Notes under the pieces: model-generated
Seen by the model: the letters and a program-made list of their open reading frames with translations, nothing else
Told to the model about the DNA's origin: nothing
Database searches by the model: none
Shown: piece by piece, positions 29,025 through 34,683 of the stretch
Numbering within the stretch: the stretch's first letter is position 1
How the letters are laid out: each line of letters opens with the position of its first letter
From: Stramenopiles sp. TOSAG23-2
Lineage: Eukaryota
Assembly: GCA_900128395.1 (NCBI GenBank)
Contig: LT649265.1
Span: 1-52,020 of the forward strand
Direction of reading: 5' to 3'
DNA: 52,020 nucleotides
Position numbers and translations under genes: made by a program

Positions 29025-29934
29025 ATGGATGCAACAGCACCGCCACCTAATTCAATGAAACCAAATGGAGGGGCACGCCCACCACCAAGACGTGGAGGTT
29101 TGTTGAACCGCGTGAAAAATAGGAGCAATAATCGTGTATCTTTACCACATGCTAGAACGACAAATAGACGAAGAGTTAGTAGTAGCAATAATAATAACGT
29201 CAATAATGATAATTATAGCAGAGCATCATTACTTTATGCATCATCCTCTACATCATCTGTTGCATCGACTAGTAACAACAAAAATAGTAAATTACATAAG
29301 CTTGCAAGTGATTATGAATCTATTTTGAAAAAAGTTTGGGATCCTGTGCCTGGAATTCGACTTGTTGTTGACGGAGATGCAGTCATAAAAGAACTTAAAA
29401 AATTACAAGATGAAGAATTTGGTAATAATAATAACAACGAAATGTTTTGGGACAATTCAAATAATAAAAAAAACTTTCCTGTTTTATGCAATTATTTAAC
29501 AGTTTGGAGAAAACGTCGTAAAAGTACAGGAATGGGAAAGTCACAAAGTAGTACTACTATTAATAAAAAGATGAAAAAGAGTGATATTATTGATAAAAGT
29601 AAAACAATAAACGTTACTGAAAATATGAAAGATGATAATAGTAGTAGTACTAGTAATAATAATAATAATAATAATAGTGATAATACAAATGATAGAATTC
29701 CAGAAGAAACGAATTTTTCTATGAAAACTATCACACATGAAGGTGGAAAAAATTCAATATTAAAAGGTGAAACAAGTCAAGAATATCAAGAACGTAAAAA
29801 TGAAAACCAGCTAGCGAAAAGAAATATAGTTGAAGGGGAGGCAAATAGTAATTCAAGCAAGAATAATAACAAGAAAGTTGAAAAGAAAGTGGAGGAGGAG
29901 GAACAACAACAACAAAGTGTCAAAAATACTTCAG

Positions 29935-29967
<33 letters not shown>

Positions 29968-32309
29968 CGGAAGAGGATGATGAGATCATACAAAGTACGA
30001 CACGTAATATCAATGGCCAGGTTGTTGAGTTAGCTATTCTTGATGCTGATCCAAATATTGGTGTTCGAGCACGTTTAAATGGGTATAAAGATAAAATTAT
30101 GCTTGTAAAAGAAGATGACATGCTTGGTATTTTATTAAATAATGGTATTAGTGAAAATGATTTAGGTTCAATGGATTTAATTGATATAATTGAGAAATTA
30201 TTATCATTTGTCAATGTAAAATTAACAAAAGAAAACATTGAGCTTGGATTTGATAGTGACGATAACAATAATAATATTAATAATAAAAATCAAGCAACAT
30301 CAACGGAAGAGGAAAAAGTCAATGATATCATACAAATTCCAGAAATAAGCACGTTAACATTTGAAAATATTGAAACTGGGCATGTAAAATCAATTGAAGA
30401 AATATTAATATTTAATAATGATACTTGCCTTGTTAGTTGTTCAATGGATAAATCAGCACATTTATGGACATATAGTACAAGTAATACTAATTTTGCAATT
30501 CAATCGAAAAAAGTATTGTTTGGACATAATGATGTTGTAACTTGCGTATCAACATGTGGAAGTTGGATTTGTACTGGTTCACGTGATAAAACTGTTCGTA
30601 TATGGAATATGGAGGTAGATAATGCAGATGCAATAGTAGTGAATGCACATGATGATGTAGTAAGAGATGTAGAGATATTTACATATAATAATAATATGCA
30701 TATTGTTTCCGCGTCTCGAGATAAAACGATAAAAGTATGGAATTTTGATGGCAATAAGAATGAATGCGTGTTAGGCAAGACGTGGAAAGGTCATACAAAG
30801 CCCGTAGTAGCGCTTAGTAATTTTGTAACGGAACATGCATGTATAGTTTCATCATCAAACGATAAAACATTGCGTATATGGGATATGAATAAGGAAAATG
30901 AATCCATTGTGTTGAAAGGGCATGAAAAAGCTATTTCATGTGTCAAAGTTACAAAATTAGTCGTCTCTACTAATACAAGCGGTACAGATGAATGGGTAGT
31001 AGTATCTGGTTCGAGTGATAAATCCGTACGTATATGGTCATTGAAAGATGGCTTATGTTTACATGTAATTCAACCATTCAAAAAAGCTGTCATTCAGCTT
31101 TCCATTTTAAAAAATGATAGTATCAATAAGAATGCGTGTTTAGCGCTAACAAGTGATGGAAAAATTAATTTAATAGATTTAGCATCAGCTAAAGTTGTTA
31201 TTGATGATTTCATTATAAAAGAAAATAAATTAGTATTGAATGGTGCTACTATACGTTCTGTAACATCTTCCAACGGTGCGAATGATGGTTCCAATAGTTG
31301 CTTCTTTGGTTTACGAGATGGTAAAATTGCTGTTGCATCTGTTAAAATGGGAAATGATGTCCGTGATAGTAATAGCAACAATAGTAATGGTAATAGTAGA
31401 AGTAGTATTATTAGTAACGATAAAACCGATTATGTAACATGGGACCAAGCTGTTGTTGCAAAAGCAAAGGAAAATATAGATGCAAGTACTATTCCAAAAT
31501 CAAATGATGGTGGAACATATGTTAATATTACAGAAAATATGTTAGGAAATCTAAAGCAAGCTCCAGTAATGATGTACAACAGCAAAAAAAAAACATGGAA
31601 TGATGCTATAATATGGCGAGAAAATATCAATGGATCATTTGATCTGTATTTGATATCATCGAATGATCGAAAAGTTGATGTTGGTCCTTCCAAATTGTTG
31701 ATTTCATCGAAATATGTTGATGATAATCAATTGATGCAAAAGTCATCGTCGAATGTTTTAAAAAGTAATCATCATCTAGAACTCAAAATTGATTTAAAGG
31801 TTTTGTCACGATATCAATGTGGATGGGAATATTACGGTGCAACAATAAAGGGAATTGATAATGGCACCGTAAAACTATTATATGATGATGGTGAAGAGGA
31901 GACCATTAATCGTTTGTATTTAAAAGCATACGATACACTTTATCATACGAATGATTTAGTAGAAGTTAAATATAAAGGTAAGAAAAAATGGTATCGTGGC
32001 ACTGTTCAAGAAGAGGCCAATAATGGGCGTTATACTGTTAAATATAATTTGGATGGTGAGATAGAAACAAATGTAAAGCGTAAATCTCTTTGGTATGTTG
32101 ATTTAAATGTGGAGAGAAAGGAAAAAGAAGTTAGTTATAATGTTGGCGATGCAGTTCTTTGTAGACACAATCGTGGTGCACGTTTCTTTGGTGGTAAAAT
32201 TGAACATATATATCATTCTGATGGTGTAGAGAAGAAGTTTGATGTTTTATATGATGATGGGGATACTGAAAAGGAGGTAGAGAGATGGTTGATAAAAAAG
32301 AAGAATTGA
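29025..32309 (+). CDS. WD40-repeat protein with C-terminal Tudor/Agenet-like repeats and Asn-rich N-terminus
   Basis: Canonical repeats such as GHNDVVTCV..TGSRDKTVRIWN; three or four modules such as YNVGDAVLCRHNRGARFFGGKIEHI..FDVLYDDGDTE. Confidence 0.88.
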
Positions 32310-32628: not shown

Positions 32629-34683
32629 TTATTGTTTTGCTTTTTTAAATGGCGGAGGTGCAGCAGTTGTTTTAAACAAACCAGATGGTGGTGGTGCAGA
32701 TGATGTTTTAAATAAACCTGCTGGAGGAGCTGGCGCAGATTTAAATAATCCTGCTGGAGGTGCAGGTGCCGCTTTAAATGGTGCAGGTGCCGCTTTAAAT
32801 GGTGCAGGTGCTGCTTTAAATGGTGCAGGTGCTGCTTTAAATGGTGCAGGAGCCGATTTAAATAATCCTTGAGGTGGTTGTGGTGCATTGTTACTATTAT
32901 TATTCATTCCTACGGAAGGTTGTGCTGGTTGTTGATATTGATATGTTGAATTAGTTGTCGAAATATTATTGCCAGTACTACCATTTGAGCTATCTGTTGA
33001 CATAGCGCCGAAATTTCTTTTCTTTCCTAATGGTATCATATTTGCTTTCGATCCACTGTAACCAGATGGTAATATTCGGGTTGTACCATTTACACGTAAT
33101 TGTTGTTGCTGTTGTTGTTGTGGTGGTGGTTGTTGTCGTTGTTGATATTGCATTCGCTGCTGCGGCTGCTGATCAGTTGATTGTTCTACTCCAGTTTGTT
33201 GATTCACAGCTCGCATAGAAAGACTATAATCAGTTCTACCATTTTGAGGGTTTTGTTTAAGTTGTAAAACTTTCACATAGACTTTTTGATTTCGTTCCAC
33301 AGCTGCATGGACATCACTGACAAAATCATTTGATATCTGCGCTTTTTGGACCAATCCAAAATGCCCTGCATGTGCTCCATCTAATTGCACGAAACATCCA
33401 AAATCTTTGATATTGTTTATAAAACCATGGCATATTTCATCTTGTTCTGGTTTTTTTCCTGCAGGCATTCCTTGATTTGGTTGTTGTTGCTGCATTTGCG
33501 GCTGCTGCTGATTTTCAGTTGATTGTTCTACTCCAGTTTGTTGATTCACAGCTCGCATAGAAAAACTATAATCAGTTCTACCATTTTGAGGATTTTGCTT
33601 AATTTCTAACACTTTGACAAACACTGGTTGATTTCGTTGCACAGCTGCATGGACATCGCGGACAAAATCATTTGATATATGCGCTTTTTGGACCAATCCA
33701 AAATGTCCTGCATGTGCTCCATCTAATTGCACGAAACATCCATAATCTTTGATGTTGTTAATAAAACCATGGCATATTTCATCTTGTTCTGGTTTTTTTC
33801 CTGTCGGTGGTTGCTTCATTCCTTGATTTTGCATATGTTGAGGTGGTCCTCGAAATTGTTGTTGCATCATTTGATGCGGTGGCATCATACCCCTAGGTGG
33901 AAACCCATTATTACCTGGAGGTGGTTGAAAATGCTGTGGTGGTCCTCGAAATTGTTGTTGCATTTGATGCGACGGCATTCCTCTAGGTGGCATTCCTCTA
34001 GGTGGCATTCCTCTAGGTGGCATTCCCATGTTTGGCAGCATTCCACGTCCATACATTTGCTGTGGATGTCTGCCTTGATGTGGAAATTGCTGATGTGGCG
34101 CTGGTTGGAAGTTGTTATTATAATTATTAGGACCTGAATTATTATTATTACTACTATTATTATTATTATTATTGCTATTATTAGAAGACAATAAATCTAC
34201 TATACTTGAAAGTTTCGCTTCTTTCTGTTGCTTTGATCTACCGCTATCGCCATTGTCATCGGATTCACCGATACCGGCAGCATCCATTGCATCTTCCATA
34301 GTCATCGGGTCGAAAAAATTCTTGTCTTTCCATCGACCAACAACTTTTTTAATAGTTTTTTTATCTTTTTTATTTGCTTTTGAGAAATGTTCCATAGTCG
34401 TCACTAAATTGGTTTGAAACCTTGAACATAATTTTCTTCCAAGTTCTTTTGATGTATTCGTAAAATTACGCAAAATGGCATCTATTGCATAACACATCGG
34501 TAAGAACTCCTCTTCATCGCAATCTTTTACAAACCTTTCCACGTAATGTACAATATGTTTATATTCTTTACTGTAAGATGAACAAATTTTTACAAAATTT
34601 TTAATAGCTGATGCGGATGGTGGATTTCTAGACGCAACTTTACCCATAGCATTATTTAATGGATCTTCACCAGACCAAGACAT
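32629..34683 (-). CDS. RNA Pol II CTD-interacting domain (CID) protein with two S1 RNA-binding domains, Gln/Pro/Asn-rich linkers and heptad-repeat tail
   Basis: CID (PPSASAIK..YKHIVHYVERFVKDC..LPMCYAIDAILR..KVVGRWKDKNFF), SCAF4/8-Nrd1-like; S1 ICHGFINNIKDYGCFVQL..GLVQKAHIS..VFVKVL..SMRAVNQQTG twice. Confidence 0.88.
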   Translation of the reverse strand: MSWSGEDPLNNAMGKVASRNPPSASAIKNFVKICSSYSKEYKHIVHYVERFVKDCDEEEFLPMCYAIDAILRNFTNTSKELGRKLCSRFQTNLVTTMEHFSKANKKDKKTIKKVVGRWKDKNFFDPMTMEDAMDAAGIGESDDNGDSGRSKQQKEAKLSSIVDLLSSNNSNNNNNNSSNNNNSGPNNYNNNFQPAPHQQFPHQGRHPQQMYGRGMLPNMGMPPRGMPPRGMPPRGMPSHQMQQQFRGPPQHFQPPPGNNGFPPRGMMPPHQMMQQQFRGPPQHMQNQGMKQPPTGKKPEQDEICHGFINNIKDYGCFVQLDGAHAGHFGLVQKAHISNDFVRDVHAAVQRNQPVFVKVLEIKQNPQNGRTDYSFSMRAVNQQTGVEQSTENQQQPQMQQQQPNQGMPAGKKPEQDEICHGFINNIKDFGCFVQLDGAHAGHFGLVQKAQISNDFVSDVHAAVERNQKVYVKVLQLKQNPQNGRTDYSLSMRAVNQQTGVEQSTDQQPQQRMQYQQRQQPPPQQQQQQQLRVNGTTRILPSGYSGSKANMIPLGKKRNFGAMSTDSSNGSTGNNISTTNSTYQYQQPAQPSVGMNNNSNNAPQPPQGLFKSAPAPFKAAPAPFKAAPAPFKAAPAPFKAAPAPPAGLFKSAPAPPAGLFKTSSAPPPSGLFKTTAAPPPFKKAKQ
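33173..33803. repeat. Intragenic direct duplication of the S1 domain (33173-33461 and 33515-33803, 342-bp period)
   Basis: Two ~289-bp copies with high nucleotide identity, in frame. Confidence 0.92.

Follow-up and report, generated by a model that had tools for sequence, protein, structure and literature searches.

A CID protein with S1 in place of an RRM, and a Prp22 that has lost its S1, in MAST-4 stramenopiles

The stretch of DNA analysed here (the window) is 52,020 nucleotides of Stramenopiles sp. TOSAG23-2, contig LT649265.1 of assembly GCA_900128395.1, and carries a gene in which a CID, a reader of the RNA polymerase II (Pol II) C-terminal domain (CTD), is joined to two S1 domains. The gene is real, and the combination of CID and S1 is conserved across five MAST-4 lineages and in no other protein among the best 150 of 559 matches to an ortholog. 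In the same clade an S1 of the same subtype has been lost from the splicing helicase Prp22/DHX8. Factors of the CID-RRM type are known; what is new is the clade-wide CID+S1 architecture and the matching loss from Prp22. The family of the CID, the architecture, its restriction to one clade, the purifying selection on the S1 and the loss from Prp22 are all read directly from sequence. It is reasonably likely that this protein represents the SCAF4/8-Seb1-Nrd1 family in MAST-4, with its RNA module replaced by one S1 in the MAST-4 ancestor, and that it acts as a tether between Pol II and RNA in the manner of Seb1 and the SCAF proteins. The parts of the gene are as follows.

32629..34683, minus strand: whole open reading frame, CID-linker-S1-S1-low-complexity tail, 684 amino acids (Pfam; near-identical full-length proteins in other assemblies)
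34273..34662, minus strand: SCAF4/8-Nrd1-Seb1-family CID, residues 8-137 (Pfam, PDB profile, Foldseek on the ortholog model)
33796..34272, minus strand: disordered P/N/Q/G/M-rich linker, residues 138-296 (composition; model confidence, pLDDT, mostly <50 in the ortholog)
33982..34026, minus strand: GMPPR in three copies (tandem unit of 15 bp), at residues 220, 225 and 230
33520..33795, minus strand: S1 copy 1, residues 297-388, Prp22/pNO40 subtype
33178..33453, minus strand: S1 copy 2, residues 411-502, 90% amino acid identity to copy 1
33010..33054, minus strand: short conserved motif N-x-x-P-L-[GA]-[KR] around residues 544-558, shared with the S1-less site of MAST-4 Prp22
32632..32865, minus strand: C-terminal F-K-A-A-P-A-P-type repeats and basic end, their character kept across four lineages

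The gene is a single 684-aa frame in which no intron is required. Pfam scores the CID, residues 23-130, at 59.8 bits (cut-off 23.9) and the S1, which falls in two stretches, at 60.5 bits (cut-off 22); it found neither an RRM nor a zinc finger nor a CCHC knuckle in this protein, and the scans of P0001, P0004, P0010 and P0012 gave no RRM. An N-terminal CID, a Q/P/N-rich region with GMPPR repeats and two S1 domains had been proposed in a first-pass annotation made from the sequence alone, and all three are borne out, the region being a P/N/Q/G-rich linker with three GMPPR copies, a number that differs among alleles. For the ortholog P0004, AlphaFold predicts two folded domains connected by linkers of low confidence. 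Contigs from all four metatranscriptome runs used map to the gene and jointly cover CID, linker, both S1s and tail; no single RNA contig spans the whole, DNA carry-over is possible and gaps in the coverage carry no meaning. The genome assembly of the host, an uncultured marine protist, is fragmented (G000, 9146 contigs), and this, together with the want of a spanning RNA contig, could suggest that the join of CID and S1 is an assembly chimera or an artefact of gene calling. However, independent ENA, JGI and NCBI records show the join in five lineages, with a locus G+C fraction of 0.33-0.51, and the gene is under purifying selection. Two of the five lineages are also syntenic with the window, the CorA and RING neighbours being kept in L037 and L038. 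A chimera is ruled out by the independent orthologs, and an artefact of either kind is exceedingly improbable.

The host is a MAST-4 stramenopile. Its 18S rRNA has no mismatch to what we take to be the MAST-4 probe and 5-7 mismatches to three other MAST probes, their sequences being likewise assumed, and, independently, one member of the P0163 cluster, which shares a Prp22 clade with the G000 protein, bears the source label Stramenopile-MAST_4. When 1.84 billion representative proteins were searched with P0004, 559 matches were obtained, and among the best 150 there were 103 with a CID, 42 with an S1 and three with both (P0003, P0010 and P0012), all from the MAST-4 clade. Because the score sums over domains, a protein with both would be expected near the top of the 559. 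Pfam run on 92 of the matches identified 20 CID+RRM proteins (one also with CCCH), 12 CID+CCCH and two CID+S1. A metagenome scan gave five loci out of 230 candidate stretches and added a fifth CID+S1 lineage (L038/L039), where an apparent GT-AG intron of 94 nt separates the CID from the S1; a word search with the CID region, of low sensitivity, found only three close relatives among 164 candidates. The CIDs of the five lineages are 52-81% identical. Members of the protein's cluster carry the JGI label 'predicted RNA-binding protein with RPS1 domain', and a literature search, mostly without subscription papers, returned no report of CID+S1 or of a Prp22 without S1.

The best solved relatives of the CID are those of SCAF8 and SCAF4. 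A profile of four orthologs scored 74 bits against SCAF8 in the PDB and 18 bits against RPRD1A, and Foldseek with the P0004 model gave a TM-score of 0.83 to the SCAF8 CID; in the ESM Atlas P0004 had no usable match and P0010 only a generic CID cluster at 0.76. By these measures the CID can be assigned to the SCAF4/8-Seb1-Nrd1 family. The host assembly contains three CID matches: the CID-S1 gene, an RPRD-like gene (L001) and a Pcf11-like gene (L003, with Pcf11_C/zf_PCFS4). As the RPRD-like and Pcf11-like genes are separate, the CID-S1 gene fills the SCAF4/8-Seb1-Nrd1 slot and is the apparent SCAF4/8/Seb1 ortholog of its genome, by its CID and not by its architecture. The earlier suggestion of a possibly undescribed factor is therefore right about the set of domains and overstated about the factor.

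Phylogenies of both domains, as suggested with the first-pass annotation, group the CID in the SCAF4/8-type family and the S1 in a Prp22/pNO40 subtype. A CID tree with RPRD and Pcf11 outgroups gave long-branch joins and was rebuilt without them. The rebuilt tree, of 59 rows, joins the five MAST-4 CIDs to a CID-RRM-CCCH protein (100/98), on a branch that the program marked as long, and places this group beside CID-CCCH proteins that include named oomycetes. These stramenopile proteins, CID-CCCH in Aphanomyces, Lagenidium and Peronosclerospora and CID-RRM-CCCH in P0034/P0304, have the closest CIDs and a similar N-terminus, but carry CCCH with or without an RRM and no S1. Since the nearest CID relatives carry RRM and CCCH or CCCH alone, replacement by S1 is supported, and the simplest reading of the tree is that an RRM/CCCH module gave way to the S1. 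The proposal that a borrowed and duplicated S1 had replaced an RRM thus stands as regards the absent RRM and the relatives that have an RRM, CCCH or both; the duplication was no part of it, one S1 being present in four of the five lineages. Fission of an ancestral CID-RRM-CCCH gene was also considered and is unsupported: a search of G000 for the orphan RRM-CCCH half gave only generic RRM and CCCH matches at 26-30% identity and one CCCH stretch of 48 residues at 50%. The oomycete SCAF-family CID proteins (P0027, P0029, P0084, P0089 and relatives) have CCCH fingers and no Pfam RRM, and are another departure from the CID-RRM plan; the literature search found no paper on them.

The tandem S1 is a recent duplication in this species only and not part of the shared architecture. 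Both copies sit in a 342-bp tandem repeat of 91% identity and differ at 19 of 276 nt within the domain, and synonymous divergence (dS) between them is 0.18, against 1.07 to the nearest other species. Two S1s occur in all seven P0002-cluster members of at least 400 aa (five shorter members were left out of the scoring), and one S1 in P0003, from the same species, and in the other four lineages. P0003, at 96% identity, could be either a genuine allele or the product of repeat collapse. The ratio of nonsynonymous to synonymous divergence (dN/dS) of the S1 is about 0.11 against L037, the same as that of the CID; purifying selection on the S1 is as strong as on the CID. The S1 has been copied once more within this lineage: an unrelated open reading frame of 906 codons on contig C627 of the host assembly (L036:2925-5642, minus strand) carries a copy of the S1 and downstream linker of the CID-S1 gene at 82-84% DNA identity. 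After its S1 come, by eye, two CCCH-like/OB-like repeats and then a coiled-coil-like tail, Pfam seeing the S1 only, and P0005 is its counterpart in another assembly. A further frame of 734 codons (G000:C5512, L014) has by eye a PHD-like finger and an HMG-like stretch, with an S1 match and a Q/P-rich tail.

The second observation concerns Prp22. In the host it is an uninterrupted frame of 1047 aa without S1 (C1385, P0159; L016:8-3148, minus strand), which aligns to a plant Prp22 both before and after the S1, one open frame running through the gap; the first reading could not have seen this matching loss. A search for homologs gave 312 matches, and among the best 120 an N-terminal PWI-like domain was present in 114 and an S1 in 108 of those 114. 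The six without S1 are P0160, P0162 and P0163, from the MAST-4 clade, P0177, P0264 and P0273, of which P0264 and P0273 retain part of one S1 end and are probably gene-model skips. The full-length cluster members P0324, P0325, P0331, P0332 and P0336-P0338 are also without S1. The four S1-less MAST-4 lineages form a 100/100 clade, whose nearest relatives, in an order the tree leaves open, are P0177, without S1, and P0351/P0373/P0183, with it. The S1 is cleanly lost from MAST-4 Prp22/DHX8 in these four lineages. A caveat that must be applied is that the CID-S1 gene and the S1-less Prp22 are paired within one genome in G000 only, the other pairings being made by matching tree shapes. MAST-4 Prp22 proteins are also without the Arg/Asp/Ser-rich stretch of related Prp22 N-termini (G000:C1385). 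No Prp43- or Prp2-like DEAH helicase was seen in the whole host assembly (among 22 and 8 matches), most likely on account of assembly gaps, though the search may have missed them. In one published account the S1 is the main feature that tells Prp22 from Prp2, PWI and S1 persist in kinetoplastids, Trichomonas, Entamoeba and some apicomplexans, and the yeast protein's N-terminus is dispensable for splicing (PMC3424538). An N-terminally truncated Prp22 without S1 is an active RNA-stimulated ATPase (PMC6486627), and a survey gives the exact function of the Prp22 S1 as undefined (PMC6832287, Table 2).

The best solved relative of the MAST-4 S1 is that of human DHX8 (2eqs), the top solved match in three lineages at 41.7, 30.3 and 28.8 bits; pNO40 scored 30.5, 24.5 and 21.8, 6-11 bits behind. 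Foldseek with the P0004 model also put the DHX8 S1 first among S1 matches and human pNO40 second. PDB entry 2cqo is named nucleolar protein of 40 kDa, and we take pNO40 to be ZCCHC17. The resemblance to Prp22/DHX8 claimed in the first-pass annotation fits the top match, but the ending SMRAVNQQTG on which it leaned is undiagnostic, like endings being found in human pNO40 (2cqo) and bacterial PNPase (4am3). In a first tree the MAST-4 S1s formed one clade (100/96) within a Prp22-type group that stood separate (96/92) from 26 ribosomal-S1/Rrp5-type repeats. That tree left out eight tandem-S1 proteins, four of them pNO40-like. It was rebuilt with the four and two others added, and with P0038 and P0141 (Prp22 fragments) and ten outgroup rows left out; the Prp22-type group (95/89) then also held the pNO40-like and other tandem S1s, with an interior polytomy. 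The S1 is accordingly placed, on trees and profiles, in a Prp22/pNO40 subtype, and the claim of a Prp22 donor is weakened by the addition. The pNO40-like proteins P0028, P0044, P0050 and P0085 have two S1s each, with weak CCHC matches in P0028 and P0044; four S1s of this subtype occur in P0020, and P0053, an acidic/RGG-rich protein, has two.

That the S1 was copied from Prp22 and then lost at the donor has a slightly better than even chance of being correct. A second account, tentative though by no means negligible, is that it came from a pNO40/ZCCHC17-like S1-CCHC gene which the CID gene either fused with or absorbed, the Prp22 loss being a separate event; a donor that is neither of these is improbable. 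Several observations tell against the Prp22 account. An eight-sequence pNO40-like profile scores 42-74 bits on the MAST-4 S1s and eight-sequence Prp22 profiles have medians of 44-67, so that the four pNO40-like proteins score equal to Prp22. They also have the long beta4-beta5 loop, which is of 11-13 residues in MAST-4, 8-14 in the pNO40-like S1s and 7 in 96 of 108 Prp22 S1s. Approximately unbiased (AU) tests reject neither the pNO40 grouping (p 0.48) nor the Prp22 grouping (p 0.47), give p 0.47 for MAST-4 S1 nested in versus sister to the Prp22 S1s, and do not reject its union with the S1 of P0351, P0373 and P0183 (p 0.31, 0.09), which the free trees do not make. The related Prp22 protein P0177 is also without S1, and the loss may therefore predate, or be separate from, the CID-S1 fusion. 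For pNO40 there is also its second place in Foldseek, the dispensable yeast N-terminus, which means that the S1 could be lost alone (PMC3424538), and the want of a separate pNO40-like gene in searches of G000, an absence that proves little since that assembly, with no Prp43- or Prp2-like match, is incomplete. Against a pNO40 donor are the first place of the DHX8 S1 in three lineages tested separately, the need for two independent events in one clade, and a shared motif.

The motif, N-x-x-P-L-[GA]-[KR], lies downstream of the S1 in four aligned MAST-4 CID proteins, marks the S1-less region in all four MAST-4 Prp22 lineages and stands directly after the S1 in one other Prp22 lineage (P0360/P0257), yet is absent from the six pNO40-like proteins checked. 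A degenerate form of the pattern occurs at three places in G000 (two in the control), namely the CID-S1 gene, Prp22 and one frame of 21 codons, and hence in only two long open frames; it is absent from all non-MAST-4 matches among 149 scanned from the P0004 search. It has to be said on the other side that the pattern was drawn after both proteins had been seen and that the CID-RRM-CCCH relative contains a less strict version, so the sharing may reflect a convergent binding motif.

How the CID might bind can be judged from residues described for its relatives. Seb1 Y64 and D67 are reported as phosphate-independent contacts to the CTD, D67M being without effect on binding, K121 and K124 are assigned to phosphorylated serine 2 (Ser2P), and S22 with K25 to phosphorylated serine 5 (Ser5P) (PMC5382271); R112 of SCAF8 is named for Ser2P recognition (PMC3215212). 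S23, Y65, D68, R72 and K113 are kept in all five MAST-4 CIDs, and the last four correspond to residues named for CTD/Ser2P binding (PMC5382271). Two positions weigh against a fully Seb1-like mode. The equivalent of K25 is A/S/A/G/G in the five lineages, so that of the Ser5P pair the serine is kept as S23 and the basic partner is gone; the equivalent of K121 is T/S/S/S/C, with an invariant lysine one position before it. Loss of the two lysines predicts a weaker, Ser2P-leaning binding. The MAST-4 CID would then bind the CTD without a double-phosphate preference and lie closer to Seb1 than to SCAF4/8, whose preferences were compared from PMC6579486 and PMC12707125. The RPB1 of the host ends in about seven YSPTSPx heptads, canonical but short (G000:C654; L035:5793-6270, plus strand), with Q/A at position 7; three apparent GT-AG introns, two of which nearly duplicate each other, interrupt this region at heptad boundaries.

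The preferred mechanism begins in the MAST-4 ancestor, where an RNA-binding module (RRM and/or CCCH in relatives) would have been exchanged for one S1 of the Prp22/pNO40 subtype. The CID would dock on Ser2-phosphorylated YSPTSPx heptads of RPB1, a step that the kept residues make very likely, the S1 would hold the nascent RNA, and the disordered linker and tail might recruit partners. In the manner of Seb1 and SCAF4/8 the protein would thereby tune pausing of Pol II, the choice of poly(A) site and termination; the second S1 is a recent add-on confined to this species.

Binding of RNA by the S1 is predicted with little more than even confidence. The central Phe is present in all six MAST-4 S1 copies, and in two lineages T or S replaces the first aromatic. 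Three features speak against binding: Asp occupies, in all six copies, a column that holds K/R in 103 of 108 Prp22 S1s, the His of GLVH (101 of 108) is Q/Q/P/H/H/K and so lost in three of the four lineages tallied (Q/Q/P/K), and the net charge is about zero. The Asp adjoins an insertion that bears an Arg. We presume, by motif, that the altered columns belong to the RNA face named for PNPase. An RNA-contacting S1 face is described for that enzyme (PMC6832287), and the S1 of DHX8 binds and positions pre-mRNA according to a figure legend (PMC12980071); the available passages of PMC12370622 add nothing further on the S1 alone.

The altered face also bears on a different role, in which the S1 moved from Prp22 to the CTD reader in the MAST-4 ancestor and still does its Prp22-linked job in trans: carried by the CID, it would travel with Pol II to the late spliceosome, the protein would couple transcription to mRNA release and would not be mainly a 3'-end factor, and what the S1 binds may be protein, not RNA. 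Such a role would fit the gain of an S1 in one gene and its loss from another within one clade, its conservation despite the altered face, the binding of SCAF4/8 near splice junctions (PMC6579486) and the retention of PWI and S1 across diverse eukaryotes (PMC3424538). Truncated Prp22 works, however (PMC3424538, PMC6486627), so nothing needs complementing, and both the transfer with continued service in trans and the role built on it are judged unlikely.

Set beside known systems, the protein shares with human SCAF4/SCAF8, Seb1 of S. pombe and Nrd1 of S. cerevisiae an N-terminal CID of the same subfamily, the Tyr/Asp/Arg pocket, a basic residue at the position of SCAF8 R112 and a long disordered linker with an RNA-type domain downstream; unlike them it has an S1 where the RRM would be, no RRM being present, and it is without the equivalents of Seb1 K25 and K121. 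Pcf11 and Rtt103/RPRD are likewise CID proteins of Pol II termination, but Pcf11 and RPRD are encoded separately in G000 and the CID-S1 protein has no zinc finger. Its S1 has that of Prp22/DHX8 as top solved match by sequence and fold and falls in the same subtype in trees; it differs in the longer loop, the change of K/R to Asp, the often lost His and the neutral charge, and it sits on a CID protein and not on a DEAH helicase. With pNO40/ZCCHC17 it has the S1 subtype in common, and with the pNO40-like proteins the long loop and equal profile scores, but it is without the CCHC knuckle and the Lys-rich tail, and those proteins are without the CID and the shared motif. In the window the adjoining gene (29025-32309, plus strand) encodes a WD40 propeller with C-terminal Tudor/Agenet-like repeats and is syntenic in L037.

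The pairing of CID and RRM has been treated as a conserved and essential unit, the RRM of Seb1 being essential (PMC12707125, PMC5382271). The effect described here is confined to one protist clade and the role is predicted from sequence, but across relatives the RNA arm of these CID factors, whether RRM and CCCH, CCCH or S1, appears exchangeable, and there is a hint of a domain moving between two RNA-processing machines. If the S1 does still serve the spliceosome in trans, MAST-4 would be a natural experiment on what the Prp22 S1 binds and would possess a direct tether from the CTD to the spliceosome. A clade in which Prp22 is without its S1, and a similar S1 is under selection on a CTD reader, offers domain swaps as a direct test.

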